A DNA stretch of 64,000 bases from NCBI GenBank assembly GCA_020619395.1, contig GCA_020619395.1_4860.1, one strand, 5' to 3'. This document shows positions 8,547 to 64,000 of this stretch, piece by piece (position 1 is the stretch's first letter; each line of letters opens with the position of its first letter). The notes below the pieces were generated by a model. The model did no database searches. It had not been told where the DNA came from and worked only from the letters and a program-made list of their open reading frames with translations. The stretch is from a phage. Made by a program: the position numbers and the translations under genes.

Positions 8547-8555
8547 AGAGGTACC

Positions 8556-9830
8556 TTACAAGGCGAAATAGCTCTGCACCAGTGTACTGGCAGACTGATA
8601 TTGGACACTACCACCGGCGATAACGTACGGACGTTTCTCGGTGGTCAGGAGTGCTTGAATCGCATTACTGTTAGCGTACGTGTAAAGCTTAAGCTCAACC
8701 ATTCCAGGATTCGTTTTAGAGATATCCCAGTTTGGATTAAGCGCATTAAACAACGTTAACAGTCGCTGACCGTAGGTGCTGTAACCCACCCCCGGCTCAA
8801 CGTTAAGGTTCATCAGAAGATTCTGAATAACAGTATCTGCAATCTCAGCACCTTGACCTGGCTGTAGTTTAGGCAAGTAATACTCAACAGAATTGAGATT
8901 GCCCGCAGCCGCAGCCTGTATCATCAGTTCGCCGTACAACGCTTGTTGTGCAATAGGATCGGTGATAGCCTGAATCATCGGATCGATGCGATTCGGCAGA
9001 CCGTATTGATTGAGCTTTGTGGACATACCGTATATCAACGCAGACGAGGTGTTGATATCCAGCGAGGAGAAATTCCCACTCCCGCCCGTAAAGCTATCAA
9101 TGATCCCGTCGATAGACAAGAAGTCGTCCAGGTCCTTAAAGCTATCAAACGTGTGCGTAACATCGTCAATCAGTGCGGTGACTTGCCACTTGGCGCTATT
9201 GGCCATATCGACGTAGTTACCGATTTCACGCTGTACCTCACCAGGCAGTTTGGCAAGCTGTCCCGCGATGTTCATCGTGGACTCCAGGCGAGCTTTCACT
9301 GACGCATAATCTGTCCCGACCGCGCTTAAAGCGCTATCGCGAAGATCAGTCAGTGTATCCCATCCCTTACTTAACAGGCTACCTGCGCCACCCGGTGAGA
9401 GATAGCTCAGTGCAGTTTTCCCTTCCTGGTTTACCTTCTGAAAGGGTTCGGACACATCGCGCTTCTGCGGATCGATAACCGGCAGCGCTTCTTTCGTGTT
9501 GGAAGCAAAAGTAGGCACACGTTGTGGCGGCGATACTCCGGAAGCCGCTGAACCTGCTGCCTTTTTACCGCCTACCGTGACTTGGTCGCCACCCCCGAAC
9601 ACGTTACCAAATTTCTCACTTATCGTGTTGCCAATGTTGGAGATCTTGTCGAAAGTTTCCCCTGCTTTGGCGGTTACGTTATTGTACAAATTTTGAGCAC
9701 TTTCAATACCGCGCTCGGCATTACCAATCGTTGACTGGACACGGTTTTGAACATCGTTAACTTTGTTCTCTATTGCGCCCGTTGTGCTGCTTATCTGGTT
9801 GGTAATCCCATCAAGGTTGTTCAGTTTCAT
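8556..9830 (-). CDS. hypothetical protein (Ser/Gly/Asn/Thr-rich, possibly virion-associated)
   Basis: 424-aa ORF; composition resembles structural or injected proteins; no catalytic motif. Confidence 0.55.
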   Translation of the reverse strand: MKLNNLDGITNQISSTTGAIENKVNDVQNRVQSTIGNAERGIESAQNLYNNVTAKAGETFDKISNIGNTISEKFGNVFGGGDQVTVGGKKAAGSAASGVSPPQRVPTFASNTKEALPVIDPQKRDVSEPFQKVNQEGKTALSYLSPGGAGSLLSKGWDTLTDLRDSALSAVGTDYASVKARLESTMNIAGQLAKLPGEVQREIGNYVDMANSAKWQVTALIDDVTHTFDSFKDLDDFLSIDGIIDSFTGGSGNFSSLDINTSSALIYGMSTKLNQYGLPNRIDPMIQAITDPIAQQALYGELMIQAAAAGNLNSVEYYLPKLQPGQGAEIADTVIQNLLMNLNVEPGVGYSTYGQRLLTLFNALNPNWDISKTNPGMVELKLYTYANSNAIQALLTTEKRPYVIAGGSVQYQSASTLVQSYFAL

Positions 9831-48442: not shown

Positions 48443-51400
48443 ATGAAAACGTATCCTTACGATCCTCGGGGTGTAAATCCCGAGTGTCACTTCATCGAGG
48501 AACGTATCATCGACTCCGACAATCCTAACGATCGGGTGGTGATGCTAGATCATCGCCCGTTTTTCGAAGGATTGGTGGTAAGGCTCGCCGGCTCGTCCAT
48601 ACCGCTTACCCGCGGGACGGACTATGAGCTGGAGTATGCTTTAACACCGTTGGACGACTCGGTGACGACCCCGGTGTTTTGCGGGGTGCATCTTATTAAC
48701 CCTAAACTGCGTGGTGCGGTGGTCTTTGAAGGCCAGATGCTCGGGGGTACGTTTTACAGTGGTTTGATTGAGATGTTGGATGAGCTAATTAAGGCACTCA
48801 ACAACCCAACGGCTGCAGATTGGCTGCTTTTAGGTAATCGACCTTCCCTGTACCCAGCCACCCCTGCAGCGGTAGCTTGGTCAGACATGCTGAATAAAAA
48901 GTATGTTGCCTCTGCAGTGCATGATGTGGAGTTAGATGCCGGGGCGGCCAACGAGCAGATTCGTGAAAAGCTTACTGAGCTGAAAGATGCGGTTTTGGGC
49001 TTAGGAACTGAAATCGCCACATTTAACTACCCCGGACACATTGCGTCCACTAACCCTCATGGGACTACCGCGGCGCAGGCCGGTGCGCATCCTGTCAACC
49101 TGAAAACGCCAGATACTTTCCTGGCGTATGGAAAGACGTTGCGTCAGTTAACCAGCGAGGTCCGTGCACTGGGTCTGCAACAATCGGATATCGACAAGTA
49201 CATTTCTAAATGGGTATCGAAAGAATCCAAAGGGGTGTTTAATGCGACGATATCCGGTACTCGTGCCCTGTTCCGTTCTCCTGCTGGTGAATCCGAAATT
49301 GTGTTCTCTGCTGAGGCATTCACTCTTAAATCTAATGGCTCTGTTGTGTTGGCGTGTGGGTATGCCGACACTACTGGAACCGCCCGGTTTATGGAGTGGA
49401 AAGCAGGCAACAATACATTACGTATTGAGTCGACTGGCAGTGCCTTGGGGATGGATAAGCTGACGCTTAATGGTACGACGTTACTGACCACAACTGCTCT
49501 CATGGGCTATCAACAAGACCCTGGTACCGGCGGTGGTACCGTTGACCCGGATGACAACAAACTGTACATTAGCGGGGTGAACGGCATTACTTTCACGGGT
49601 AAAGGGTCAAAAGCCGATCCCGTCACCGGGAAGGTCACAGCCAAACCCGCGACGACCTCTGAACCTGGCGTTGTGACGCTGACTGATAAGCCGAGCGATG
49701 TAGTCAAGGGACAAGCAGTCACCCCAGCTTCGCTCTTACCGTACGAGGGTGATCTGTCTTCGTACGTCAGGAAAACAACGCTGCTGAATAACCAGCCGAT
49801 GGACACTGGTAGCCGAACGCTAACGAAAAAGGATTTGGGTCTGGACTTGGCTGATAACACAGCTGACGTCGATAAACCACTTTCTGATGCGTTGGCAGAA
49901 GCAGTTACCGGTCTTAGTGATAAAGATCACCATCACAACTTCGCCGATTTACAGATCCCAACGGCTTCTCAAACAGTTCCCGGTATCGCTCGATATTCTA
50001 CCAACCTAAACGGCTTGTCGGATAATCGCGGCGTTACCCCGAACGTTCTGAACGATTTGTCAAAACGTTTAGACGTAGTTGCAGCTGCGCTAGCAAACGC
50101 GAAAGAGGATTCCGTGACCGATTTTGCCGCTGTGCGCGGTAAGACTTGGACTGTGGGATCTACACGTACCACCCTCGCCGTAACGGATTTGAATTATTTC
50201 TATCTGTTAAATGGTGCACGTAAAGAGGGGACGGTATCTGGTTCGATAGACTTGCAAACCACCCCGATGTTCCAGTGGTTCTCTCCAGATAACCGTATGG
50301 AAAGAACGTGGCAGAACGCGGTAATTAATACCGGTGCCGGTATTGATTTTAGTGGGTTTGAGGTTGCCGTCCCGGAAACGAACTACGGTGCGCAGATTGG
50401 GTTAACGACAACCGGAATGGGTGATTTGTCGGTCGTTAACCTCTTGGCGAAAACGTGGGTTCGTTGCGACTCTGGTAAGCTGCGGATTTGGGTTCGTGGC
50501 GGTGGTGCTGTTTCTGTTTATCTGGACGGTGAAATTATCGGTGCGGGTATTACAGAAGCGGGGTATCTGGAGGCGAAGGTCAAGGAGGGGTGGAAGCAAC
50601 ACTGCTTAGCATTCCGTGCCGAGTGTAACGATAGCGCTAAAGCAGCCGCAATTCGTTTCACAATTTACGACGGTGACTTTGCGGTTGGGGCCTCGGATAA
50701 AAACACCAAAGTTGCCCGCCTGCAGGAGTTTGTTAAGACGCCGAACGGTTTAAGGCATTACCTTTACGTGAACATGATAACCGATGCGTTATATTCGCGC
50801 GCCGAACCTATTGTGGACACGGAAGGTATTAACCTGGAACGTGGGTATATCGGCCACATTGATGTCCCTGACGCGGGATTGGTTGCAGGCACGACTTACG
50901 AGTTTGAAACGACGTTTGATTTTGGCATGGCGTCCGAACTTAAACGGCACTTCGAAACACGTCTAGCACACGGGGTGAGTAACACCGACTGGTCGTTGAC
51001 GGATAACCCGAAAATGCTGCCGTTGAATAAGGTTGATCCATTACCTAAACAATGGCTGTATGCGTATCCAACTAACCCGTCTGTTTCTGGGGATAACCTC
51101 GTTCGTTTAGATCGTGGGTTATTTGATTATAAATTCGTAAGTGCCACCTCGCTTAGGATTCTTCTTGCGGCGGTTGTTTCCACTGAAAACGCGTCCCCGT
51201 ATTGCTGGTTTACACCAAGCAACCCGAAAGAAAATGGTATGGCGACATTCGAGGGTTCGGTGGTAATCGACACTGATTATCCTGAAGTCCCAAAAACCTC
51301 GGACGTCGAAGTTTCATTAAACTTCATGACCCCTTCTGCTGATGGGAAAGGTAAAACCAGAGTCCTGCGGTGGAGTAACACCAAGACCAGTTTAAATTGT

Positions 51401-52573
51401 GGCTTTATTGCCGCGCCGTACGATAAACCAACCGGAAGAATTGCCAGCACACAATCCAGCGTTACTAATACGCTGGTTGATGCTCCTCGTGTAATCAAGA
51501 GCGTGGATGTTCAGTCGCCTGACTGTTTAGACTATCTCCCGGTTTCAATCGCTAGCGAGTTCGCAGCCATTGGTTCGCGCTGGCTTATTCGTTATCGCTA
51601 TATTGTTGATACGCAGATACTGCGAATATCGACGATTAGTAAGATAGGTGGCCAGGCTTCGGCAACTGTTCGTGAGATAGAATACGACGTTCCGTTTGAC
51701 GCGATTGATTATTTTAAAGGTGGCGCTTTATCGATTAGTGTTACTGGCATCGAAACTGGTGAAGGCGTCACAATCAACCACGGTTTGATGGACCCCTCCA
51801 CAACAGAAGTAGATTTAAATCGTTTCCATTATCTACGCTCACTATTTGAGTCGTATATTGAGCGTTCTCCAGACAGCCAGTCTTCTGGGCATGAGGAGAT
51901 GTCGATATCAACCGTCACGTTCGCGAACTTTGGAGATAACGTCGATAACCCGGTTACGGAATACATCACGATGTCTGCTGCAAGTGAGGGTTATCCGGAA
52001 CTTGCACCGAACGGTAAACTCCCCGCACCGTTTTACAAAGGGCTGCAGAAACGTGGTGCTCCGCTACTTGAGTCGGCTCCTGCAGACTATACGTCTAACG
52101 GTGGTGAATGGAAGTACGGCTTTATGCGGGCTTATCGCCCAACTCAAAATGAGCGTTTTGTGTCGGTAAATGGGACAATGCTCTCTAACTACCCTGGATA
52201 TATCATCGTGGGTAGTGAGAAAATTCCGGGTAATGTTATACCTTTCAGTGCATCGACAACAGCTGTTCAGATATCTGGGACTCTTGCCCGCACGAAACCG
52301 ATGCAGCCAATTCACATCGTGTTCGTGCCTCCGGAAGGTTCTGTGCCGCCGCTGCAAGCGAAGTTCACTATTAATGGCGTGGGCAGTAGTGGTAATCCGA
52401 TGTTCGTGATTACTGAAACGACACCGGTGGAACTTCGCACTGGTGGCGAGACGATTCTCATTGAGAAGCGTAATCCATTCCACATCCCCACCAGGACATG
52501 GGATTGGATTTTACAAACGTTGGATACTGAACGTAGAAACGAAGGCAACAACTCGGGTGAGTGGGCCTCTTAG
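48443..52573 (+). CDS. tail fibre protein 2
   Basis: 1376 aa; SD aaggag; repeats ASQTVPGIARYST and TTSEPGVVTLT; HHH motif. Confidence 0.75.
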   Translation: MKTYPYDPRGVNPECHFIEERIIDSDNPNDRVVMLDHRPFFEGLVVRLAGSSIPLTRGTDYELEYALTPLDDSVTTPVFCGVHLINPKLRGAVVFEGQMLGGTFYSGLIEMLDELIKALNNPTAADWLLLGNRPSLYPATPAAVAWSDMLNKKYVASAVHDVELDAGAANEQIREKLTELKDAVLGLGTEIATFNYPGHIASTNPHGTTAAQAGAHPVNLKTPDTFLAYGKTLRQLTSEVRALGLQQSDIDKYISKWVSKESKGVFNATISGTRALFRSPAGESEIVFSAEAFTLKSNGSVVLACGYADTTGTARFMEWKAGNNTLRIESTGSALGMDKLTLNGTTLLTTTALMGYQQDPGTGGGTVDPDDNKLYISGVNGITFTGKGSKADPVTGKVTAKPATTSEPGVVTLTDKPSDVVKGQAVTPASLLPYEGDLSSYVRKTTLLNNQPMDTGSRTLTKKDLGLDLADNTADVDKPLSDALAEAVTGLSDKDHHHNFADLQIPTASQTVPGIARYSTNLNGLSDNRGVTPNVLNDLSKRLDVVAAALANAKEDSVTDFAAVRGKTWTVGSTRTTLAVTDLNYFYLLNGARKEGTVSGSIDLQTTPMFQWFSPDNRMERTWQNAVINTGAGIDFSGFEVAVPETNYGAQIGLTTTGMGDLSVVNLLAKTWVRCDSGKLRIWVRGGGAVSVYLDGEIIGAGITEAGYLEAKVKEGWKQHCLAFRAECNDSAKAAAIRFTIYDGDFAVGASDKNTKVARLQEFVKTPNGLRHYLYVNMITDALYSRAEPIVDTEGINLERGYIGHIDVPDAGLVAGTTYEFETTFDFGMASELKRHFETRLAHGVSNTDWSLTDNPKMLPLNKVDPLPKQWLYAYPTNPSVSGDNLVRLDRGLFDYKFVSATSLRILLAAVVSTENASPYCWFTPSNPKENGMATFEGSVVIDTDYPEVPKTSDVEVSLNFMTPSADGKGKTRVLRWSNTKTSLNCGFIAAPYDKPTGRIASTQSSVTNTLVDAPRVIKSVDVQSPDCLDYLPVSIASEFAAIGSRWLIRYRYIVDTQILRISTISKIGGQASATVREIEYDVPFDAIDYFKGGALSISVTGIETGEGVTINHGLMDPSTTEVDLNRFHYLRSLFESYIERSPDSQSSGHEEMSISTVTFANFGDNVDNPVTEYITMSAASEGYPELAPNGKLPAPFYKGLQKRGAPLLESAPADYTSNGGEWKYGFMRAYRPTQNERFVSVNGTMLSNYPGYIIVGSEKIPGNVIPFSASTTAVQISGTLARTKPMQPIHIVFVPPEGSVPPLQAKFTINGVGSSGNPMFVITETTPVELRTGGETILIEKRNPFHIPTRTWDWILQTLDTERRNEGNNSGEWAS

Positions 52574-52648
52574 GACGGACTGCCTACGGGCGGGTAGTCC
52601 GTAGGTAAACCGCCCTTCCGTTATTGGGAGGGCGGTCTCCGTTTTATT
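52574..52648 (+). terminator. tandem hairpins / probable terminator between fibre genes
   Basis: two GC-rich stem-loops (cctacgg/ccgtagg; accgccc/gggcggt) followed by ccgttttatt. Confidence 0.45.
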
Positions 52649-52668
52649 ACAGATTAGGAGTGTTTGCA

Positions 52669-55600
52669 ATGCCGAGAGAAGATGCGGCGCAGTTTAACGG
52701 TACCCTCAGTACCGCTACTTACCCGAACCGTTATTCGACGGTCATTCCCGTCGAAGCACCGTTCTATCGCATCGGGTTAACGTTAACCGTTACCGATAAA
52801 ACAACCGGAACCAAACGCAAGTTAATAGAAGGTCTTGATTATTTCTTAGGACATTACTTCCAGGAATTAGCCGAGGCTGAGAACGATGCAATATACGGCA
52901 GCATAATGCTGCTGAACGCCACAGAGGTAGAATACGAGTTGTTGTCGGTTGGTCGACAGTATCGCATCCCTGCTTCTGAAATCGGCAAGTATCTGGTTAA
53001 GACAGATATGAAAGACCCGCGTAACTGCGATTGGTCTGAGCTGATGAAATATCCGCCGATTATCTCGCCAATCGACCCGCCAAAAGATCTCGAAGAAGCC
53101 ATCCTTCGCGATGAGATTGTAAAGGCGCTGGAAGATATCCGACTGGGCATTTTAGAACGTGCCCACGAACTGGATGAGGCTTTTGCCGAAGTTACCGATT
53201 TGATTTATCAGAACGGTAAACAGGTGTTTGATGACGAAATGTATCAACACCACCTGATTAAAAATGCACATGGTTACACCTGTGGCGATATCGGTGCACT
53301 CCCTGTGCTCGGTAAGGCCGTGGATGCGACTAAGGCGTTTGGACGTACACTGGCAGAGCTAGTGACGTTAATGTCTACCAGCGGCATCCAACAGAAACAC
53401 GTTGACATGCTTCTGGATAATACCCTGGGTGATTTACTGGGCCGTATGCGTGTTCTGAATAACGACGCGATTACGTTCCAAACAACGTCTGGTCACGTTA
53501 TCAGCATGAAGGGTGAGAAGTTCATTATCACCTCGACAAAACCGCTGGTATTAAAAGCTGACCAGGATAACAACGAACCGGGTATCGCTACGGAGTTCAG
53601 TGCTGGTCTGAACACGCTTTGGGTTCACTCGGGTAAAGCAGGTGACAAGTGGGGCGCTTATGATGCAGGTGTGCTTGCACCTGTATATAACAGCGTGTAT
53701 CTCGTTACACCGGATATGGTTAAGATGTACTTGACCTCGGTGAAGATACTTCCAGCAAACGCCTACTTCAAGTCCAGCGACACGTTGAAGATTTACGGCT
53801 CTGGTAAAGAAACAAACAAAGTTTACATGAATGCGGAGCTGCCTGCAGCAACCACAACTGTGCAGGGTTTGTTTGCGATTACTAACCTCTCGGCATCCGC
53901 TGCAGCGTCCACAGCGATTTCCCAAAAAGCTGTTACTGACTTGAAGAACAAACTCGACGGATATGTGGACGACACGTATACAGTCAATGGTAAAGGGTTT
54001 GTATTAGATTCAAACGGGCAGATGCATCTGACCTTAACCGCGGCAGATTTCGGTATTGAGAAGATGAACAATACCGGACCGCTGGAGAAACCGGTTACTA
54101 ATGCGTTGCGCACCGTGCTATCAGGCAAAGCGCTTACAACGCACACCCACACCATTGCAGATCTCGATAACGTGCCGTACGCATCCACGTCTGTTACAGG
54201 TTTGGCTAAACTGTGGGATGCAATCGACACTACCTCGGATAAGATGGTCACTTCGCGTCAGGGCTTCTTGCTTGAACAAAAGATTGACACACTGAATGAC
54301 AAGATTGCTACGCTGTTGCCCGCATGGACTGTCGGCGGATCATCGTACGGCAACAATAACTTCTTGCCTATACCTGTCCAGGGGAACTACGAAGGGTATA
54401 CCAAAAACCAAACCTGGCAGAAAGGTTTGGCGCGTTACGAGTCTGGTAAGGTTTACTCGCTCCGTAACGGTTCTAACGGGAATCCACCAGGTGACTGGGC
54501 TATCTATTACGCCTATGCTGATGTGTCGCCAAGCAATACGCTGGAAAATATGCAGCAGACGTCCGTACGTTATCGACCCGCTGGAATGTCGGCGTATCCT
54601 GGGGTGAATCTGGTTGCTATTGTGATTACCGGTACCGATGCAATGATCTGCTTAGGCAGTGACGGTGCGTACTACCTGGTCATCTTCGATGGGACGATTG
54701 ACCATGCAAAACATCATCGTGTTGTTAAAGTGGTGTTGGGTGATTACAAGAACGGTAATGGTGCGGGCACAGTAACGACAGCACCGTGGGCTCCAAACGC
54801 TTCTACAGACGATTTGATTGTTTGTAATGAGCGTGTCTACCTGTTGCGTACGGTGCTTACCTCCGGTGACTATTTCGTGAGTATGCGTAGCATCGCACTC
54901 AACGAACTTAATCCGGGTGGTAGCAACACGTTTGTGGCGGATGCGTTAACAGGCGGGATATTAACGTCGGGTGAAAACGTTTATCTACGACAGGGACAGA
55001 AACGTGCAGCTTCCGATGCGCTCCCAGCACCAGTTACACAGATCTACGCAGACGCGTTAGCGAAATGGAACAATGCAATCAACTTTGTACATGGCCCTGA
55101 GTGTAATCACGCGATTGGTGTTGATGGGCTGAAATTTCGTGTTGGTTTAACGCCAACAGTCTGGTTTGCCTCCTCCACAGGACAGACGATTAACTTTAAA
55201 CAGTGGACGTCAAGCTTTGTTGTCGACTGTAGCGCATTAACGGTAACTCTGGAAGGCGCTGATCGATTCCCTATTGTGGCTGATCTTACCACGGTTCGTT
55301 ATAACAGTGGTGCTGAGATTGGGATTCCGAGCCGGAAGTGGGGCGAAGGCCAAGCTAATAACAAAACCTTTGCAACATCGCAAGACAAGTATATTGTTTC
55401 GCAAGGACATGCAGGCGATCGCGACCTAATGCCTTATGTCACGATTACAACGTTAGATGACGGTGTGAGTTGGTACGAGTACCTGTCGTGCGACTACAAC
55501 TTCACTGCCAGAAGTTTTAGTGCGGTAATGTTAAACCAAGGTCGTGGTTCTATCTACGAGCTGGGTATGGCGTATCCGCTGACTCTGGGAGCGAATTCCA

Positions 55601-57852
55601 GACTTATCTGGTTGTCACAACCGCGTTCCCGTTTGGCAATTGAAGTTGAGTTTGATCCGAACACCACTTACTCAGGTAAGGCGGGGTATGGCCCAACTAA
55701 CAATCGTCGTGTAGTAGATTCTATCACGTATGAGAATCTGTCGCAGATGTGCCACATTGTTACACCGGCGTCGCCTGGTACAGAGTTAAACGGCTGGTAT
55801 TGCACAGGACCAGAAACATTCCCTTATCACAACGTTTCTGGCACTTTCACGATTCATGCCGATCGGTTGACGCTGTCACAAGCCGAATGGGATAAGATGA
55901 AGCAGATGATCATCGACGGTGCACCGGCTGGCGCTGCGAATGGTTATGCTTCGGAATTTATCCTTGCCGCAAATAACGCAGGAAAGGCATTGTTCTCCGT
56001 TTGGTTCATCGGCATTGGTACGGCCACACCGCTCACGTTAGCACAAGTAGCATGTACGCGTACTGTGAACAACGTTAACGTGTTGGATATCTACTACTTT
56101 ACACTGAAACCAACAATCAGCAACGGGCAGGTAACATTCCCCGCAGCGATATTGGCTTTGTTTGACTTCTATAACAACCTCGACTATGGCTTGAACTATG
56201 CTACGTTGGGTGAGATAACGGGAGGAAAAACACGCCGGCCGGGACAACCTACACTGGTGTCGGTAGATGGTACTCGGTTCGGGTTGTATCTTCCACACAC
56301 GTTAACCTTGCGCCTGATTGGCGACTTGGGTGCGCTTAACTACGCTGTTGGTCTTACGCTGTCTAATGGTACTTGGACGCGTTCTTCTGCTCCACACGGC
56401 GTTGGACGTATGGCACCGGCACACACTCCAGTCAGTCCAGCTTATCTGGCCCATCGCGATCAAGTGATGCTACACAACTCATCTCTCGACTACGTCTACT
56501 GTGGTGGTATCGCAACGTCGTCGAGTGATTTTGTCGCGGCTCCTAATTTTAGTGGCCCGACTGAATCGGTTGTCATTGCTGGTGTGGAAACAGCTGAAGG
56601 TTGGCTGGTATATGTGACTGAGGAAGTTGACCTGCGTTTCGGCTCGAGCACTTATAAGCTGCCTACGTGGTATATTGACCTCAGCGCAGCATTTCCAACA
56701 AACCATCAGAACCGGACATTCTACCTGCACGCCAAGGTAGAAAATGGTACACCGAAGTACGTAATGGACGTGATTCAACATCCAGACACTGAAACGGAAC
56801 TCTATATCGGGTATGTTAAAACGGGCTCGTCGCGAGTCGTCGAGACTAACGTCGAACATGCTAAGCGATTAGGGGCGGTGAAACAACTGTTGGAACATGC
56901 GGCGGTTGAGAATAAGCATGATGTGGAGGTGGGAAGGGATGCAGCAACGGGCAGACTGGCACCATTGCGTAAAGAAGCGATGGGTCCTTTGTCGATCGAT
57001 GCTACGAAAGGCTATCTGGATAGTCAGTTGCTTTATACCGTATCCGACGCACAGCGTCGCGGTAAAGCGATGGTGTCCAAACGTTTCGAAGGCTTGAAAA
57101 CTTTGCCGGCGTTTACTCAGGCAAACAAGTCGGGGGCGTTTTGGAAACATCCTACAACAATTGCGACGGTAACGGCCGATGAGAACAGTGAAGCGACATC
57201 GTTGGGTATGGAGTGGGTAGGTATTCCAACGCCCGCTTTCGCTCCGACCTCAACAAACCTGATGGTGGTGGTGCAAAGTAAATTCGTCGTCCCAGGTACA
57301 CCGGGAGTAGAAACGACCTTTAATGTCCACGTTGCCCCATGGGAGGCGGTGGATGGCTTTTTCTACAACGTCGAGGCGGAAGGTACGGATGTTAACATTG
57401 ATGAAAATCCAGAAGTGTTATTGCCGTCACCACATACCGTGCACCACAAACAGCACTCTCTGCCAGCAGGCGTGCCGTGTACCTTTACATTTGTCGCGGC
57501 GGTAAGTTCTTCAGCGCTCGAAACAGCTAACCAGCATATTTGCTCTTGGCTTTTCACTGACGCTGGGGGACTACCAATCACCACCGATCTTTCGGATAGT
57601 AAGATTCAAATCTTACCACAGCCGGGAGAGACCAACGGCACACCAGTTGTTCTGAACAGTCGTAGCTACACGTTTACGAATGTGACAGGTGCAATCCCGG
57701 TTGTTACCACGGGCGCTCAGGGTTTATTCCCACCACCGATCGTGGCGTGGGATGGCGATGATCTTACGTTAACGATTGCGCACGATTGGGTGAACGAGAG
57801 GGGACGTCAACAGCCTGATGTTATCCAGGTCAATCTTATGTTCCGTACCTAA
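52669..57852 (+). CDS. tail fibre protein 3
   Basis: about 1727 aa from ATG at 52669 with SD aggag (ORF track extends to TTG 52624); repeats TTTVQGLFAITN, STSVTGLAKLWD; HTHTIADL. Confidence 0.75.
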   Translation: MPREDAAQFNGTLSTATYPNRYSTVIPVEAPFYRIGLTLTVTDKTTGTKRKLIEGLDYFLGHYFQELAEAENDAIYGSIMLLNATEVEYELLSVGRQYRIPASEIGKYLVKTDMKDPRNCDWSELMKYPPIISPIDPPKDLEEAILRDEIVKALEDIRLGILERAHELDEAFAEVTDLIYQNGKQVFDDEMYQHHLIKNAHGYTCGDIGALPVLGKAVDATKAFGRTLAELVTLMSTSGIQQKHVDMLLDNTLGDLLGRMRVLNNDAITFQTTSGHVISMKGEKFIITSTKPLVLKADQDNNEPGIATEFSAGLNTLWVHSGKAGDKWGAYDAGVLAPVYNSVYLVTPDMVKMYLTSVKILPANAYFKSSDTLKIYGSGKETNKVYMNAELPAATTTVQGLFAITNLSASAAASTAISQKAVTDLKNKLDGYVDDTYTVNGKGFVLDSNGQMHLTLTAADFGIEKMNNTGPLEKPVTNALRTVLSGKALTTHTHTIADLDNVPYASTSVTGLAKLWDAIDTTSDKMVTSRQGFLLEQKIDTLNDKIATLLPAWTVGGSSYGNNNFLPIPVQGNYEGYTKNQTWQKGLARYESGKVYSLRNGSNGNPPGDWAIYYAYADVSPSNTLENMQQTSVRYRPAGMSAYPGVNLVAIVITGTDAMICLGSDGAYYLVIFDGTIDHAKHHRVVKVVLGDYKNGNGAGTVTTAPWAPNASTDDLIVCNERVYLLRTVLTSGDYFVSMRSIALNELNPGGSNTFVADALTGGILTSGENVYLRQGQKRAASDALPAPVTQIYADALAKWNNAINFVHGPECNHAIGVDGLKFRVGLTPTVWFASSTGQTINFKQWTSSFVVDCSALTVTLEGADRFPIVADLTTVRYNSGAEIGIPSRKWGEGQANNKTFATSQDKYIVSQGHAGDRDLMPYVTITTLDDGVSWYEYLSCDYNFTARSFSAVMLNQGRGSIYELGMAYPLTLGANSRLIWLSQPRSRLAIEVEFDPNTTYSGKAGYGPTNNRRVVDSITYENLSQMCHIVTPASPGTELNGWYCTGPETFPYHNVSGTFTIHADRLTLSQAEWDKMKQMIIDGAPAGAANGYASEFILAANNAGKALFSVWFIGIGTATPLTLAQVACTRTVNNVNVLDIYYFTLKPTISNGQVTFPAAILALFDFYNNLDYGLNYATLGEITGGKTRRPGQPTLVSVDGTRFGLYLPHTLTLRLIGDLGALNYAVGLTLSNGTWTRSSAPHGVGRMAPAHTPVSPAYLAHRDQVMLHNSSLDYVYCGGIATSSSDFVAAPNFSGPTESVVIAGVETAEGWLVYVTEEVDLRFGSSTYKLPTWYIDLSAAFPTNHQNRTFYLHAKVENGTPKYVMDVIQHPDTETELYIGYVKTGSSRVVETNVEHAKRLGAVKQLLEHAAVENKHDVEVGRDAATGRLAPLRKEAMGPLSIDATKGYLDSQLLYTVSDAQRRGKAMVSKRFEGLKTLPAFTQANKSGAFWKHPTTIATVTADENSEATSLGMEWVGIPTPAFAPTSTNLMVVVQSKFVVPGTPGVETTFNVHVAPWEAVDGFFYNVEAEGTDVNIDENPEVLLPSPHTVHHKQHSLPAGVPCTFTFVAAVSSSALETANQHICSWLFTDAGGLPITTDLSDSKIQILPQPGETNGTPVVLNSRSYTFTNVTGAIPVVTTGAQGLFPPPIVAWDGDDLTLTIAHDWVNERGRQQPDVIQVNLMFRT

Positions 57853-57899
57853 CAGATAGCGCTATGGGGCAAGGAAGCCCCAATCAAAGGAGTTTGGCA

Positions 57900-59102
57900 A
57901 TGGCCGAAATCATTTATCAGTACCCGCTTGACCTTACCGGGACATTAACGTCGAACGCCGTTACACGGCGTATTACGTTAGGTTCTGGTAAAGTTAACCG
58001 GGCTTTTGCTTTTCCTGACGGAGCTTTCTACGCGGATACCTTCCGCTTGGCAGCTGCGAATAAACCAGGTGTCTACCCGTACAAACGCGGCACAGACTAC
58101 GAACTGATTTTTGCACATACTGCATATCAGAAAATGACCAAGAACCGCGAAGTGGTCATGGGTGTGGTGGTAACTAACTCGGCCATTCCTACTGATATCG
58201 AAGTCTCTGCGCAAGTCGTTGGTGGTTTTCAGTCCGCGAACGTCGAAGGTATCCGACAAGCGATTGCGTCGCTGAAAATTGAAGACCGTGTGGTGGACTT
58301 CAAGGATCTTCGAAACGTACCTGATACGTTCCCATCCGCCCCGACGTATAAAGACCTTGGCGATATCTACGGTTTTGAGTATATCATTACCGTACTCGCT
58401 GGGATTAAAGATGCGATTAACTCCGGCTCTGCAGTACAGCTGGAAGAAATCAAAGGTATTCTGGACGGTCTGAAAAACGACTTCCTCGATGCCTTAAATG
58501 CCCACATCAACGCCGAAGGTAACGTACACAATCTCGACATTCATCAGGTTAATGGCCTGACGGAGACGGAGATTCGTGCTCTGATTCAAAGTGTACAGAC
58601 TGCCATTGACGCCACTATCAAAGATATCGGCGACTTAAGAGCAGCAGACACGGCGTTGGGGCAACGCATCGATGCAATTGTGGCTTCGTTAGCCGCGTGG
58701 AACGACCAGCTTAATGTAGTTGCTCAAAATTACCAGAAAATGTCGTTAGCATTAGCTAACCTTAATTCTCTGGTGTTGCAATTACAGAAGATGGTTAACG
58801 ATCTTCAGTCTGCACTGAATGAAACAAATCAGCGCGTCACGGATCTTGAGAATCAGGGCAAAGACTTCCAACAGCAAATTGATAACCTGCAAGGACAAAT
58901 CAACAGTCTTAAAACTCAGGTTATAAACAACACCAACGCAATTTCGCAGGCAAACCAGAATCTGGCGAACCATGCGGCTGCGGATAACCCACACCCGAAT
59001 TACCTCCATAAACAGTATGGCGGTGTTGTGCAGGCTGCTGTTCACGTCAACAACAGCCTCACCTCGCGCGACGATGTTCAAGCTGAAGCGGGTACTAAGT
59101 AA
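57900..59102 (+). CDS. tail fibre-like protein 4 with C-terminal coiled coil
   Basis: about 400 aa from ATG 57900 (SD aaaggag); N-terminal domain homologous to fibres 1-3; Q/N/L-rich heptad region near C-terminus. Confidence 0.65.
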   Translation: MAEIIYQYPLDLTGTLTSNAVTRRITLGSGKVNRAFAFPDGAFYADTFRLAAANKPGVYPYKRGTDYELIFAHTAYQKMTKNREVVMGVVVTNSAIPTDIEVSAQVVGGFQSANVEGIRQAIASLKIEDRVVDFKDLRNVPDTFPSAPTYKDLGDIYGFEYIITVLAGIKDAINSGSAVQLEEIKGILDGLKNDFLDALNAHINAEGNVHNLDIHQVNGLTETEIRALIQSVQTAIDATIKDIGDLRAADTALGQRIDAIVASLAAWNDQLNVVAQNYQKMSLALANLNSLVLQLQKMVNDLQSALNETNQRVTDLENQGKDFQQQIDNLQGQINSLKTQVINNTNAISQANQNLANHAAADNPHPNYLHKQYGGVVQAAVHVNNSLTSRDDVQAEAGTK

Positions 59103-59167
59103 CTTGTTTACGAGCCGGACTATGTTTATGGACATAGTCCGCTCGTTCTACTTTTTAAGGAAGCGTA

Positions 59168-59560
59168 ATGGCGATATCTATTAAAGACGTCAGAAACCGC
59201 GTCCAGATAGTCGAAGCTAACATGGCGACAGGCCCCCGCATCGAGGCGCAAGTGGCCTCTAAAGCCCATAATGCAGCAGACCGATTTGGGGGTTGGACGA
59301 AAGCACAGCTAGATTGCGGCGGGACATGTTCTTGGACGTGCTCTAACGGTTGCTCGCATGGCTGTTCGAGCTGTTCAGGAAGCTGTTCTGCTTCTTGTAT
59401 CGGTAGCTGTTCTTCGACGTGTGGCGGTAACTGTTCTGGTTGCTCTGGTTGTTCTGGTGGTTGCAGTAGTAGCTGTACCGGTAACTGTTCAGGTGGTTGC
59501 GGCGGCTCTTGTTCCGCAAACTGCTCCGGGGCCTGCTCCGGCGGCTGTTCAGGTCGCTAA
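59168..59560 (+). CDS. Cys/Ser/Gly-rich precursor-like peptide A (leader + C-x3-C repeat core, 21 Cys)
   Basis: 130 aa; SD aagga; about 50-aa leader then DCGGTCSWTCS... with Cys every 4th residue; adjacent to radical-SAM genes. Confidence 0.65.
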   Translation: MAISIKDVRNRVQIVEANMATGPRIEAQVASKAHNAADRFGGWTKAQLDCGGTCSWTCSNGCSHGCSSCSGSCSASCIGSCSSTCGGNCSGCSGCSGGCSSSCTGNCSGGCGGSCSANCSGACSGGCSGR

Positions 59561-59570
59561 GGGGGATTAA

Positions 59571-59972
59571 ATGGCAATTGGATTAAAAGAACTGAATAAC
59601 CGATTAAACGCGATCGATGCAAACGCTTTAAAGAACACCACGAATGTGCAAAACTACATTCGCAATAAAGCTACGAATAACGCCGACTTGTTCGCAGGTC
59701 AAGGCCGTTCGCACTATGACTGTGGTGGCACATGCTCTTTTAGTTGCTCGAGTTGTTCTGGCGGGTGTACTGGGTCTGCTACGGGCGGTTGTGGGTCGAC
59801 TTGTTCCGCAAACTGTGTATCGGGCTGTAGCAGTAGCTGTACGGGCTGTAGCTCTTCGTGCTCGGGTGGTTGTAGCGGAACGTGTACTGGTAACTGTTCT
59901 GGGGGTTGTGGTAAATCCTGCTCCGCAAACTGCTCCGGCGCGTGTTCTGGTGGTTGTTCAGGTCCTAACTGA
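59571..59972 (+). CDS. Cys/Ser/Gly-rich precursor-like peptide B (paralogue, 20 Cys)
   Basis: 133 aa; SD ggggga; leader homologous to A; core DCGGTCSFSCS...; C-terminus near-identical to A. Confidence 0.65.
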   Translation: MAIGLKELNNRLNAIDANALKNTTNVQNYIRNKATNNADLFAGQGRSHYDCGGTCSFSCSSCSGGCTGSATGGCGSTCSANCVSGCSSSCTGCSSSCSGGCSGTCTGNCSGGCGKSCSANCSGACSGGCSGPN

Positions 59973-59983
59973 CGGAGGCTTAT

Positions 59984-60190
59984 GTGATCAGTCTCAAGAC
60001 TATTCGAAACCGTCTCGTTACGGTAGAAGGTTACATTACAACCGCACAGGCAAACAACTATATCGCTAACCAGGGCACCGTGTCGACCACAAATAACCTG
60101 GCTGGCTTACCGCTTTCTCACTATAACTGTAATGGTGGGTGTAGCTGGTCCTGCAGCGGAAGCTGTAGCCGTGGAGCGGGGAATCGATAA
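59984..60190 (+). CDS. Cys-rich precursor-like peptide C (short core, 5 Cys)
   Basis: 68 aa; GTG start with SD ggagg; leader homologous to A/B (LK-x-IRNRL); core NCNGGCSWSCSGSCS. Confidence 0.5.
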   Translation: MISLKTIRNRLVTVEGYITTAQANNYIANQGTVSTTNNLAGLPLSHYNCNGGCSWSCSGSCSRGAGNR

Positions 60191-60212
60191 CAGAAAACGT
60201 TCGGAGTATTAA

Positions 60213-61100
60213 ATGAAAAACGATTTGCATCTTGCGTATAAAACCACATTCAACCACCCGCTGCATCTATCTTCCCCAGATTCAGTGCGTGCGCACCTTG
60301 CTGACAAAGTCAGACTGATTGCACAGATTCCTGGTGAGTGGCCAAAGGTTCGTGGTCGCTTCTTGACCGACAAGAAGAACTACACCGTAGAAAATACGTT
60401 TAAGATCCGTGATATGGTTGCAGAGGCCATCGTTATCTTTAACGGCGATGGTAACTCTCGTGGCGTGTTAGTCGACGGTAAGTATTTCTTCAGTGAAGGG
60501 ATTTTGAACAACAGCGTCGATTTAGAACTGATGTTTACACCGTTTGACGAACTTGAAGCAAAACCGATGGCGCGCCGTTGGTGGAGTCCGGACTATCTGG
60601 GCTCGTTCCCTTACTACTTTGTACTGGTACCTGCCGATACGGAAACGTATTTCGACACCGAACCGTACATCGATATCGAGGGATATAAAGAACTCGGCAT
60701 CACCCGTTTAGCGGACATGATGGCGTATAGCTATAAGTTCGTGTGGGATAAAAAGCGTTCTGTCTGGTATGCGTTGACTGACGATTTTGAAATCACCAAA
60801 CGTATTCGTAAGCCGTGGATGCAACACCTGGTTCAAACCCGATATGGGGATTACCCGGCGACAGAAGCGGATTTGAGTAAGCTGGTAAGCTTCCTCTTAA
60901 CGAAGGTGGATTTAACGAAAGAAGAAGCAGAAGCTGTTTCTGAGATTCGTAGTCGTTCGGTAACGTTGGCCGATTTGAAACGCTTGAACGAAAGACACGC
61001 CGACCTGAACAAAATTTTAGCTGCCTATCACGACCCGATGTTACTGGTGCCTGGCGCTAATGTAGACGAAGATCCTTTATTCGCCATTGATTATATTTAA
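60213..61100 (+). CDS. hypothetical protein (cluster-associated, unknown function)
   Basis: 295-aa ORF with SD ggag, lying between precursor peptides and radical-SAM genes. Confidence 0.6.
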   Translation: MKNDLHLAYKTTFNHPLHLSSPDSVRAHLADKVRLIAQIPGEWPKVRGRFLTDKKNYTVENTFKIRDMVAEAIVIFNGDGNSRGVLVDGKYFFSEGILNNSVDLELMFTPFDELEAKPMARRWWSPDYLGSFPYYFVLVPADTETYFDTEPYIDIEGYKELGITRLADMMAYSYKFVWDKKRSVWYALTDDFEITKRIRKPWMQHLVQTRYGDYPATEADLSKLVSFLLTKVDLTKEEAEAVSEIRSRSVTLADLKRLNERHADLNKILAAYHDPMLLVPGANVDEDPLFAIDYI

Positions 61101-61122
61101 AAATATACTGGAGCAACCTGCA

Positions 61123-62037
61123 ATGACAGATCAAGTAGAATCCAGGATCTCGTCTGAACTGTACGACAAACCGTCAATTCTGTCGGTTGTCGCAACTTCT
61201 AAGTGTAACTTAGACTGTAGCTTCTGTGGAGGGGCTTATTACATGGATAGAGAAGATACTTCTCGTGAGTTTCAACGCGAAGAGATTCTCTCGATTTTAG
61301 AGAAGAATCCGGATATCGGTGAGATTCATTGGACGGGCGGTGAGCCGCTGTTAGCGCAGCGTAAGATTGAAGACTTCGTGAACGAGTTGAAGGAGTCTCA
61401 TCCGAACCTCCGTCATCACATGTACACCAACGGTTTAAAGATGCGTAAATCACATCTGCCGTTGCTGAAACAGTTCGACCTTATCTTTGTGTCCATTGAC
61501 GGCTACAAGAAGTCGGAACGTCCGTTTATGAACTTTGTAAACGGTGGTAATCACGAAGCGCTGGAAGTGCTGTACGAGCTGGACAACTATTACACCTGGG
61601 GTGTGATGACGCGTGACCAGTTAGGTGATAAACGCTGGTACGAAGATTTCATCGAGCTGCACCGAGCAATCTATCATTACCGTCCAGGTGGTGTGTCGTT
61701 GTTGTTTGATGCGATGATGCCGAAACCGTTATCGCCAGACCACGTCATGAACTTCATGTACGGGTATTGGAAAATACTCGACAATATCGAACGCCTTAAC
61801 ATGCAGAACGATTCTGAATGTGGGCTCGCGATCAGTAAAATGTTCGATACCGAGTGCAACACGTGCAGTGAAGTGCTGTGGCTTAACGCCGACGGTACGC
61901 AGGAGCAAATTCAGAACGCCCCAGAGATATTGGAAGTCGGCTGTAATCGCCTGGCGCGTTCTATCGGCGTTGATGCGTATAACTACATCAACCGTGTAAT
62001 TTCTGCTAAGCGTAAACGGGCGGCGAACAATGAGTAA
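61123..62037 (+). CDS. radical SAM enzyme (peptide-maturase-like)
   Basis: CNLDCSFC (CxxxCxxC) near N-terminus, GGEPLL SAM-binding motif, C-terminal extra Cys (ECG...CNTC...GC); ATG 61123 with SD tggag. Confidence 0.8.
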   Translation: MTDQVESRISSELYDKPSILSVVATSKCNLDCSFCGGAYYMDREDTSREFQREEILSILEKNPDIGEIHWTGGEPLLAQRKIEDFVNELKESHPNLRHHMYTNGLKMRKSHLPLLKQFDLIFVSIDGYKKSERPFMNFVNGGNHEALEVLYELDNYYTWGVMTRDQLGDKRWYEDFIELHRAIYHYRPGGVSLLFDAMMPKPLSPDHVMNFMYGYWKILDNIERLNMQNDSECGLAISKMFDTECNTCSEVLWLNADGTQEQIQNAPEILEVGCNRLARSIGVDAYNYINRVISAKRKRAANNE

Positions 62038-63358
62038 TAGCGAACAGCAAATCCAGTACACACCACGCACGTATCAGGTTGTGACTAACCTGTCATGTAA
62101 CCTGGACTGCGAATACTGCTACGAGCGTAAATATCCGCGTAACAACAAAGTAGCAGACGTGATTGATTTTATCCACGCTTGTTTCGAGCGCGATAAAGAT
62201 ATCCCGAACGTTGAAGTCATCATCGATATCATCGGTGGTGAGCCGTTCATGCAGCCTAAACTTCTTTTGGCGGCCTTTGAAACCGCAGAGAAGTTATGCG
62301 CAGAACACAATCGCCCGTATATGTTCAGTATCTCCACGAACGGTACGCTTCTGGACCGTCCGCTGAACAAAGAAATTATCGAGCGCTGGAAAGACAAACT
62401 GTCTATTGGGGTCTCCATCGATGGTTTACCTGAAGTCCATGACAAATATCGTATCTTTACCACGACGCGTGAAGGGTCGTACGAAGCTGCGGTACGCGGT
62501 TACAATTATCTGAAGAGTGTTGGCATCGCTGAACTGGGCGTAAAAGCGACGTTTACGATCGATACATTGCCGCACTATGCCGCCAGCATGAAATCGTTAA
62601 TTGACATGTCCGGCGGTGGTACCATTTCTGGTAATGTAACGTACGAAGATATCCTGCCGCGCCATATGGCGTTGGATATCGCGAACCAGATGATGGACGT
62701 GATGGACTACTGGATTGAGAAGGGTCTGCACACCAACCCGCGTAACACGATTACACACATCATCCCGGATGGCCTGAACTTTATGGCAACTTGGGACCCG
62801 GATTGGCGTGACAAACTCTTACACGACGACTCTGTTCGTCTCGACCCAGAACGCCTGAAACCGTACTGCGGTACGTTGACGCACATGACCTGTCTCGGCT
62901 TTGATCGCAAGATTTACGGTTGTAACCGTTTCATGTCCACGGTAACTTCCCGCTCTGCTGTAGCGGAACTGGTCGGTCGTGAGTTTGTGAGTCTGGACGG
63001 TGGTAAGCTGTTAGAAGAGATTCAAACGCAGTACACCAACTACCCAGAAACCTGTTTAGGGTGTCCGATGAAACACAGCTGCGGTAGCTGCGCAGCGGCA
63101 TCGTACGAAAACGGTGAAGGTACACTGGAAGACCGTAAAGCGTATCACGCCGAGCGTCGTCAGTGTGGTTGGACTACTGCGAAGCTGATGGCGGCGGAAT
63201 ATTGGTATCAGAAAACTGGTACGACTCGCGCATCAGATTTGCACGATAAATCCATGTGCTATTGTTCACGTTGTGTACGCCAACGTGCCGAAGCAGAAAA
63301 ATTACAAAACGGAGCCCAGAATGAAGTCAATACTGATTCACAATTTTACGAAGCGTAA
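62030..63358 (+). CDS. radical SAM/SPASM-domain enzyme (anSME/sactisynthase-like)
   Basis: CNLDCEYC (CxxxCxxC), GGEPF, C-terminal SPASM-type cluster CLGCPMKHSCGSC plus further Cys; start overlaps upstream stop (ATGAGTAATAG). Confidence 0.85.
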   Translation: MSNSEQQIQYTPRTYQVVTNLSCNLDCEYCYERKYPRNNKVADVIDFIHACFERDKDIPNVEVIIDIIGGEPFMQPKLLLAAFETAEKLCAEHNRPYMFSISTNGTLLDRPLNKEIIERWKDKLSIGVSIDGLPEVHDKYRIFTTTREGSYEAAVRGYNYLKSVGIAELGVKATFTIDTLPHYAASMKSLIDMSGGGTISGNVTYEDILPRHMALDIANQMMDVMDYWIEKGLHTNPRNTITHIIPDGLNFMATWDPDWRDKLLHDDSVRLDPERLKPYCGTLTHMTCLGFDRKIYGCNRFMSTVTSRSAVAELVGREFVSLDGGKLLEEIQTQYTNYPETCLGCPMKHSCGSCAAASYENGEGTLEDRKAYHAERRQCGWTTAKLMAAEYWYQKTGTTRASDLHDKSMCYCSRCVRQRAEAEKLQNGAQNEVNTDSQFYEA

Positions 63359-63887
63359 ACTGCACTTGGTCGATCGCTTCCTGCGCAAAAGCAAGCTGTA
63401 CAATGTGCACGCAATTGTGGCAGGGGAAGACTTCACTGATGAAATCCAAAGCCTGTTGATTAAATACGGGCTGAATGTGATGATCCCGGTCTACTGCGTT
63501 GAGAAAGGACACGAGTCTGTCGCGGAAATCGAAAAGCGCAACCCTGGCTTTGAGAAGCGACTGCTTGCATACCCACGCCACAAAATCGAACTGCTACGTC
63601 ACTCTATTGATGAAGCCAGTCCTGAAAGTTTAGTGGCATTGGGCTTGTCATTCCCGCGGATGCGTATTCGTAACTTACGCTCCAATAACCCGGTTGACGC
63701 TTATTACACAGAACGTCAAATCTTCGAAGAACACCTGCTCCCGCAGTTGGAAGAAGAAGAGCAACACAACATTTCTCTGTTGTGGGCCGGTAACCTCGAT
63801 CAGGACTTCCAGATGCTGGACTTCGGTTTGTTGTTAGAACTTGGCCTGATTGAGGAGGACGAATGTCTGTTACTGACAAAAGCTTAA
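63321..63887 (+). CDS. hypothetical protein
   Basis: about 188 aa from ATG 63321 with SD ggag (ORF track extends to 63273); start overlaps rSAM gene end. Confidence 0.5.
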   Translation: MKSILIHNFTKRKLHLVDRFLRKSKLYNVHAIVAGEDFTDEIQSLLIKYGLNVMIPVYCVEKGHESVAEIEKRNPGFEKRLLAYPRHKIELLRHSIDEASPESLVALGLSFPRMRIRNLRSNNPVDAYYTERQIFEEHLLPQLEEEEQHNISLLWAGNLDQDFQMLDFGLLLELGLIEEDECLLLTKA

Positions 63888-64000
63888 CGAACGAAGAGAT
63901 CCGCGCCCGTTATTTCCAGCGTGATTTGCCGATTGATCGTCACGGTAATTTCATGGAACGAATCGGTGCGCAGGATCAGGGTCGTACCGGATTTTGTGCA
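63862..64000 (+). CDS. hypothetical protein (3'-truncated by window edge)
   Basis: ATG 63862 preceded by SD gaggagga; open to end of window. Confidence 0.45.

Follow-up and report, generated by a model that had tools for sequence, protein, structure and literature searches.

Why a phage should carry two different radical S-adenosylmethionine (SAM) enzymes next to each other, and on what these enzymes might act, is the question raised by positions 61123-63358 of the phage contig GCA_020619395.1_4860.1 (GenBank assembly GCA_020619395.1). The stretch of 64,000 nucleotides (nt) that was analyzed, hereafter called the window, encodes at these positions the enzymes termed here rSAM-A and rSAM-B, preceded by genes for three small Cys-rich proteins (P1, P2 and P3) and for a gp165-like protein. 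On balance, and with restrained confidence, we consider it probable that these genes are part of a conserved cassette of phages by which a Cys-rich tail-fibre module is matured post-translationally, probably by thioether cross-links. An initial annotation of the same DNA had described the two enzymes and had regarded the small proteins as their 'precursors'; it had missed the fourth conserved partner, namely the gp165-like protein, and the homology of these precursors to tail-fibre C-termini.

Over the region 59100-63900 the sequence shares 98-99% identity with Salmonella phage SPN3US and related phages; these belong to Seoulvirus and are jumbo myoviruses of ~240 kb related to phiKZ, and by this measure the window is that of an SPN3US-like jumbo phage. 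rSAM-A and rSAM-B correspond to SPN3US gp164 and gp163, which have been annotated since 2011 as 'putative radical SAM superfamily protein 2' and '1', respectively.

Two distinct radical-SAM enzymes encoded by adjacent genes

The larger enzyme, rSAM-B, is a member of the radical SAM superfamily (Pfam PF04055, 55.6 bits against a cut-off of 29.5) with the motifs C23-x3-C27-x2-C30 and G69-G70-E71. As the initial annotation had stated for this protein of 442 amino acids (aa), a full SPASM-type CxxCx5CxxC set is combined with extra Cys residues. SPASM-type Cys are found at positions 280, 288, 298, 342, 345, 351, 354 and 379, and they include C342-x2-C345-x5-C351-x2-C354, in which the last spacing is CX2C, compared to CX3C in the SPASM definition. 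Throughout the family no variation is seen at C280, C298, C342, C345, C351, C354 and C379, and almost none at C288. With this Cys set rSAM-B qualifies as a SPASM protein with two predicted auxiliary [4Fe-4S] clusters; the Pfam SPASM model (PF13186) gave no match to it. The best NCBIfam matches were TIGR04115 (3e-36) and PapB (1e-32), and the alignment of the rSAM-B family profile with CteB (5WGG; E = 1.6e-34) spans every SPASM Cys. We place rSAM-B beside the TIGR04115 and PapB families, as a sister clade, and regard it as homologous to CteB through the SPASM domain. An additional C-terminal motif, C410-x-C412-x2-C415 (window 63257-63274), is conserved in the jumbo-phage clade only and could bind an additional metal or serve for docking.

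The smaller enzyme, rSAM-A, also belongs to the radical SAM superfamily (PF04055, 58.8 bits against the same cut-off of 29.5) and carries C28-x3-C32-x2-C35 and G72-G73-E74. A GGAG ribosome-binding site is located 8-11 nt 5' of the ATG at 61123, and a TTG at 61087 is not needed as a start because the homologues begin at the Met of that ATG. The short C-terminal Cys set, which together with the CxxxCxxC and GGE motifs and the length of about 304 aa had been correctly described in the initial annotation, consists of Cys 233, 245, 248 and 274. Among 24 homologues, down to 40% identity, C28, C32, C35, C245, C248 and C274 are invariant, and C233 is not conserved. A confident AlphaFold2 model (predicted local distance difference test score, pLDDT, 87.8) places the CxxC before a beta-hairpin (strands 251-254 and 260-262) and C274 before helix 275-281, which is compatible with a twitch-like C-terminus holding a single auxiliary cluster with three Cys ligands. 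With three Cys ligands an open site is possible, as in MoaA.

By fold, rSAM-A was matched best by CteB and SuiB, both of which modify peptides; viperins, MoaA, anSME and EpeE came next. Regarding named sequence families, the match is confined to the first ~130 residues, i.e., to the generic core; the families hit include viperin, MoaA, QueE and NrdG-type enzymes, and NF033640 also matches the core only (39 bits against a cut-off of 170). Among 5.8 billion proteins, full-length relatives fell into 36 clusters, almost all of them on contigs of 220-250 kb, and 16 representatives at E <= 1e-30 were found among 1.84 billion proteins. In GenBank, rSAM-A is present in 68 phage records belonging to SPN3US-like jumbo phages of Salmonella, Erwinia, Escherichia, Cronobacter and Proteus, with the exception of a partial match in an unannotated 5-kb 'Bacteriophage sp.' fragment.

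Profile-profile alignment of the two enzymes is limited to the catalytic core (residues 13-206 of rSAM-A against 4-211 of rSAM-B; 20% identity, E = 2.7e-11) and their C-terminal parts do not align, which agrees with the earlier assignment to two different radical-SAM families. The candidate explanation of rSAM-A as a truncated paralogue of rSAM-B was ruled out, since only the cores align. Neither gene is a degraded pseudogene, as both are intact, with essential motifs that are invariant on alignment, and both are judged to be under purifying selection. The end of the rSAM-A gene overlaps the start of the rSAM-B gene by 8 nt, and this overlap had been taken to imply coupled, stoichiometric expression. 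Such coupling is plausible, yet the overlap, although retained in Erwinia phage Asesino, is missing in Cronobacter phage CR5 and Erwinia phage Wellington, in which 10-12 nt separate the two genes.

A Cys-rich repeat protein and the gp165-like protein accompany the enzymes

P1-P3 are encoded 0.9-1.9 kb upstream of the rSAM genes on the same strand, and each of the three genes has a good ribosome-binding site. All three consist of an N-terminal part of ~49 aa followed by an invariant C-x-G-x-C-S-W motif (C-G-G-x-C-S-W in P1), after which P1 and P2 continue with CXXX repeats; P3 is almost repeat-free. Cys accounts for 15-16% of P1 and P2. In the close clade defined below, the Cys-to-Cys spacing is 4 in 170 out of 208 intervals, and the repeat positions are mostly Ser/Thr (X1), Gly (X2) and Ser/Gly/Thr (X3). 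The TIGR04114 target repeat was matched weakly by P1 (18.4 bits) and P2 (16.4 bits), both scores being below the cut-off of 20. The Pfam CXXX target repeat (PF27846) is present in precomputed annotation, and our local Pfam scan gave no match for P1-P3 or the other CXXX proteins. CR5, Wellington and Asesino have retained all three proteins, their P3 orthologues being 68-69 aa long.

Relatives of rSAM-B were gathered from viral contigs, assemblies and genomes, resulting in 85 loci that fall into a close and a distant tier, and a same-strand CXXX-repeat open reading frame (ORF) was located nearby in 79 of them. In the close tier there are 13 lineages of phages or prophages (the SPN3US group, L002, L003, L008, L009, L010/11, L012, L013 and L170-L174), with 30-39% identity to rSAM-B outside the jumbo phages. 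A CXXX protein was found in 12 of the 13 lineages, L173 being truncated by the contig end, and the gp165-like protein was detected by hidden Markov model in an equal number (12/13); its fold gave no match to known folds. A second small radical-SAM enzyme is clear in 11 lineages and probable in L173. The order of the genes varies, with A before B accompanying one junction type and B before A the other, and in L012, which comes from a viral contig of 284 kb, both enzymes form a single A::B fusion protein of 686 aa (7137-9197). Because the neighborhood is conserved despite the shuffled order, and because of the natural fusion, there is strong evidence from gene context that the two enzymes work together; the view of two distinct, cooperating enzymes is supported, and with it the earlier proposal of two distinct maturases for one target family. 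The further suggestion made there, two modification chemistries acting in sequence or as alternatives, is a hypothesis. What had been termed one precursor family indeed appears as a single Cys-rich target family, but its modules are like the C-termini of tail fibres and not like leader-core peptides.

In the distant tier (~25% identity) a single enzyme accompanies a CXXX protein with an N-terminal domain of ~110 aa and there are no further partners; the viral relatives L014, L056 and L092 are true TIGR04115 members (434-474 bits). Scanning 185,579 species genomes with the rSAM-B profile yielded, among the matches listed, distant single-enzyme CXXX systems only, and close prophage copies (e.g., in Deferribacter abyssi) may lie outside these listed matches.

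Some further observations concern the variety of these loci. In L170 (4306-7134) three consecutive radical-SAM genes follow a CXXX-tipped fibre and a gp165-like gene, in a prophage-like tail module with GpJ upstream. In the distant tier, CXXX repeats stand behind a GDSL esterase domain in L060 (6297-7553) and behind an F5/8 type C sugar-binding domain in L075 (6535-7917), both domains being typical for phage receptor-binding or depolymerase proteins. A specific action of rSAM-A on the C-S-W-[ST]-C junction was also considered and ruled out, since second radical-SAM enzymes are present with a Trp-less junction as well (L009, L172 and L174).

Tail-fibre homology of the CXXX module

Outside the jumbo phages, the CXXX repeats form the extreme C-terminus of recognizable tail fibres. 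The CXXX protein of L009 has a Phage_tail_fib N-terminal domain (PF12571, 1.8e-40), those of L008, L009, L012 and L013 match many PHROG tail-fibre families, and that of L002 contains typical fibre repeats. Furthermore, P1 and P2 belong to phrog_6085, and this family matches the last 65-100 residues of the fibres in L002, L003, L010, L012 and L013; a junction motif, NAxxLxGQ...Y-x-C-x-G-x-C-S-W-[ST]-C, precedes the repeats in both the fibres and P1-P3. On these sequence grounds we regard P1-P3 as homologous to tail-fibre proteins.

Gene order points in the same direction. In L009 the genes run Baseplate_J, Tail_P2_I, CXXX fibre, gp165-like, rSAM-B, rSAM-A, DUF1353 and tail sheath, in L013 fibre, rSAM-A, gp165-like, rSAM-B, sheath and tube, and in L008 GpJ, CXXX fibre, gp165-like and rSAM-B. 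Judged by this arrangement, the cassette sits in the usual genomic slot of tail-fibre assembly chaperone genes such as P2 gpG and lambda Tfa, i.e., the position that directly follows the fibre gene and precedes the sheath or the tail-module end. However, these chaperones have no sequence or fold similarity to the cassette, and they provide transient folding help as opposed to the covalent modification proposed here. In the window, the cassette is located directly downstream of the virion fibre genes gp167-169, whose SPN3US products have been identified by mass spectrometry as tail proteins of the virion (PMC5694885 Supp. Table 1).

The CXXX genes have largely escaped public annotation. SPN3US 'gp166' (JN641803 143409-143744) is an ORF in another frame over P2, offset by 73 nt, P1 and P3 are without annotation in SPN3US, and the whole 1.1 kb is blank in phage MET_P1_082_240. 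P1-P3 are unannotated or mis-framed in the CR5 and Wellington records as well. In the window, long alternative-frame ORFs run through the CXXX genes at 59644-60069 and 59358-59570 (+), one of them being the counterpart of the annotated SPN3US gp166. With the frames given here, the predicted tryptic peptides include VQIVEANMATGPR, IEAQVASK and FGGWTK for P1, and LNAIDANALK, NTTNVQNYIR and ATNNADLFAGQGR for P2. The public annotation of three Cys-rich genes, absent or mis-framed in SPN3US and its relatives, is thereby corrected; owing to these errors, the published virion proteomes are blind to P1-P3.

Relation to known systems

The arrangement resembles TIGR04115/TIGR04114 systems, in which a SPASM radical-SAM enzyme adjoins a protein with Cys at every fourth residue. 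Such a target does adjoin rSAM-B, but the enzyme scores 125.6 bits against the TIGR04115 cut-off of 350 and hence is placed in a sister clade. In addition, canonical TIGR04115 systems have one enzyme, without the gp165-like protein or a second radical-SAM enzyme, whereas the SPN3US cassette adds both as well as the tail-fibre context. CteB, the SCIFF maturase (PDB 5WGG), and PapB, the freyrasin ranthipeptide synthase, are thioether-forming radical-SAM/SPASM enzymes acting on Cys-rich peptides, as is predicted for rSAM-B. In contrast to these enzymes, rSAM-B has no N-terminal RiPP recognition domain (RiPP, a peptide made on the ribosome and modified after translation), since its cluster motif begins at residue 23. 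Differences also concern the targets, which are short secreted peptides for CteB and PapB and would be fibre modules in the SPN3US cassette. P1-P3 lack the Cys-X3-Asp of freyrasin and Asp is rare at the repeat positions; the score of rSAM-B with the PapB model (NF047865) is 113.6 against a cut-off of 340.

A precedent for a protein target is offered by QhpD/QhpC of quinohemoprotein amine dehydrogenase maturation, as rSAM-B matches TIGR03906 at 4e-15. QhpD is a radical-SAM/SPASM enzyme that installs several Cys thioether cross-links within a functional protein subunit and not within a natural product. The similarity is, however, much weaker, and the QhpD target is a periplasmic enzyme subunit with Asp/Glu acceptors, without a repeat and without a second radical-SAM enzyme. 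The combination of a SPASM radical-SAM enzyme with a smaller non-SPASM one near a repeat target is known from HxsB/HxsC (rSAM-B with HxsB, 5e-21; rSAM-A with HxsC, 6e-12), but both scores are below the cut-offs (75.1 against 370 and 45 against 267.9, respectively). Neither an HXS repeat nor HxsA was found, the targets carrying CXXX. No literature on the cassette, on TIGR04115 chemistry or on radical-SAM modification of fibres was found in a search whose coverage did not extend to most subscription-journal papers.

Proposed mechanism and alternative explanations

We lean toward a pathway in which the substrates would be P1-P3 and, in other phages, the CXXX-repeat C-terminus of the tail fibre itself. 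From residues of the Gly/Ser/Thr-rich repeats, rSAM-B would abstract hydrogen, and each Cys sulfur would become bonded to a neighboring carbon, giving a ladder of small thioether rings; because of its homology to CteB, PapB and QhpD-type enzymes, rSAM-B probably converts the repeat Cys to thioether bridges. rSAM-A would act on this substrate with another radical reaction, perhaps a second set of links or an epimerization, and the gp165-like protein would stand in for a conventional chaperone as an adaptor that hands the fibre module over to the enzymes. The outcome would be a stiff fibre tip that neither redox conditions nor proteases affect and that becomes part of the virion; in SPN3US-like phages this tip would be encoded as three separate small proteins. 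A more specific version is possible, but we hold it only tentatively: a four-part 'fibre-stapling' cassette would replace the chaperone and turn ~20 Cys into a thioether-laddered, redox-proof tip, as the first RiPP-type radical-SAM chemistry in virion building, with P1-P3 perhaps forming a heterotrimeric tip on the gp167 fibre.

A number of points weigh against the maturation of a fibre module by both enzymes. The CXXX module of the jumbo phages is a free small protein, and therefore its attachment to a fibre is assumed. The SPN3US virion proteome lists gp167-173 and none of gp163-166 (PMC5694885 Supp. Table 1); the absence of gp166, P1 and P3 says little, since P1-P3 were unannotated or in the wrong frame in the annotation used. 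L008 is without a second radical-SAM enzyme, distant rSAM-A relatives keep two or three of the auxiliary Cys (C245/C248/C274), and the small-enzyme part of the L012 fusion has no C-terminal Cys. Given that rSAM-B remains below the curated cut-offs of TIGR04115 (125.6 against 350) and PapB (113.6 against 340), its chemistry is not transferred by family membership. More generally, gene content, motifs, family relationships, co-occurrence, the fusion, and the tail-fibre identity and slot in other phages are observed, and from them we infer which proteins are the substrates, that thioethers are formed, how the enzymes share the work and that the product enters the virion.

Several paralogous small precursors followed by maturases are reminiscent of a classical RiPP cluster, in which P1-P3 would have a leader-core layout and lysis would set free the modified Cys-rich cores, as antimicrobial, signaling or anti-defence agents unrelated to the virion. 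It fits this explanation that the nearest named families of rSAM-B are peptide maturases and that P1-P3 are free small proteins with a conserved N-terminal part of ~49 aa. We nevertheless consider it unlikely. The genes by which a classical RiPP cluster is recognized (a RiPP recognition element or PqqD-like protein, a leader protease, an exporter or immunity gene) are lacking here, as no protease, transporter/exporter, immunity gene or RiPP recognition element was detected in 59168-64000 with Pfam, NCBIfam and PHROGs, and a secreted natural product is disfavored because protease, exporter and recognition element were not detected. Moreover, 12 other lineages carry the repeat and the junction motif as the C-terminus of a fibre or as a small ORF directly 3' of the fibre gene, at the chaperone position of tail modules, and in the phrog_6085 alignments the N-terminal part of P1-P3 resembles the fibre segment before the repeats. 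A slightly lower probability still is given to the possibility that the CXXX repeats bind a metal or Fe-S cluster, while the radical-SAM enzymes act on another substrate or merely assist folding. The Cys density of P1 and P2 and their regular spacing would suit such a role, and metal-stabilized fibre tips are known, the T4 gp37 tip containing His-bound iron. However, SPASM maturases and CXXX repeats are tightly linked in the close clade as well as in the distant one (79/85 loci), rSAM-B is homologous to enzymes that form Cys thioethers, and free thiols or labile clusters would presumably be a liability on an extracellular particle.

The role of rSAM-A leaves room for another explanation, according to which rSAM-B alone modifies the repeats and rSAM-A is a non-catalytic partner or acts on a non-peptide substrate, such as a nucleotide, cofactor or lipid (cf. 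viperin and MoaA). The generic character of the rSAM-A core, which beyond its own family matches viperin, MoaA, QueE and NrdG-type enzymes, is in line with this, as is the fact that canonical TIGR04115 systems need one enzyme. Such a division is nonetheless improbable in our view, to about the same degree as the RiPP cluster, given that full-length rSAM-A relatives are essentially restricted to the cassette, that A and B are adjacent in 11-12 of the 13 lineages despite the variable order and are fused in one, and that the catalytic motifs of rSAM-A are invariant and its best folds are those of peptide-modifying enzymes (CteB and SuiB).

If the maturation of a fibre module is correct, RiPP/radical-SAM enzymology would meet phage structural biology, and phages would harden their receptor-binding organelle by covalent, enzyme-installed cross-links. 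The uncharacterized family of CXXX-repeat maturases would gain a biological role, and SPN3US in Salmonella would be a tractable system for the question why two radical-SAM enzymes are needed. Thioether-stapled repeat rods might also find use in stable phage fibres or peptide scaffolds.

Genomic setting and flanking genes

The coordinates of the cassette and of the neighboring features are collected in Table 1.

Table 1. Cassette genes, flanking features of the window, and plasmid records carrying the enzyme pair.
Feature	Position	Strand	Remarks
P1, CXXX-repeat protein	59168..59560	+	130 aa, 21 Cys; phrog_6085 7e-40; AGGAAG ribosome-binding site
P2, CXXX-repeat paralogue	59571..59972	+	133 aa, 20 Cys; phrog_6085 2e-41
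P3, short paralogue	59984..60190	+	68 aa, 4 Cys; GTG start; GGAGG ribosome-binding site
gp165-like accessory protein	60213..61100	+	295 aa; found with the cassette
rSAM-A, radical-SAM enzyme, twitch-like C-terminal extension	61123..62037	+	304 aa; ATG start
rSAM-A stop / rSAM-B start overlap	62030..62037	+	ATGAGTAA; 8 nt
rSAM-B, radical-SAM/SPASM enzyme	62030..63358	+	442 aa
gp169 homologue, large baseplate/fibre candidate	48443-52573		N-terminal domain common to gp167 and gp168 (phrog_2163)
gp168 homologue, large baseplate/fibre candidate	52624-57852		N-terminal domain common to gp167 and gp169 (phrog_2163)
Coiled-coil virion fibre protein, gp167 homologue	57864..59102	+	PHROG phrog_2163, 1e-108
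Terminator-like hairpin and T-run	59110..59156	+	between gp167 stop codon and first CXXX gene
gp162-like conserved neighbor	63321..63887	+	phrog_7988, 7e-87; match from residue 17 of ORF starting at 63273
gp161-like DUF4376 protein, start only	63863..64000	+	leaves the window; N-terminus identical to SPN3US gp161
rSAM pair, plasmid record	NZ_CP173450.1 28483-30559		
rSAM pair, plasmid record	NZ_CP134650.1 209817-211893		

Upstream of the cassette, the domain common to gp167-169 (window 48443-59102) fits the 'paralog family C' baseplate/fibre candidates of SPN3US. The terminator-like hairpin in front of P1 may set the CXXX/radical-SAM unit apart from the fibre gene; the RNA fold of 59100-59166 has a predicted energy of -24.1 kcal/mol (z = -4.3), a stability reached by none of 200 shuffled sequences. 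Scanning for sigma-70 promoters returned fewer sites than expected by chance. Downstream, the gp162-like gene overlaps the end of rSAM-B by 38 nt, and this synteny is retained in Asesino, CR5 and Wellington. It is followed by the gp161-like gene, the SPN3US counterpart of which matches PF14301 at 5e-9. A DUF4376 protein was also found 3' of the rSAM pair in L172 (8248-8919), an unrelated 104-kb contig.

Finally, the rSAM pair was found at 75% identity on 'plasmids' of ~222 kb in E. coli 98232 and Enterobacter ludwigii, and the identical protein is present on contigs of ~240 kb in many Salmonella and E. coli assemblies. Both the plasmids and the contigs resemble genomes of jumbo phages that bacterial cultures harbored or that were isolated along with such cultures.

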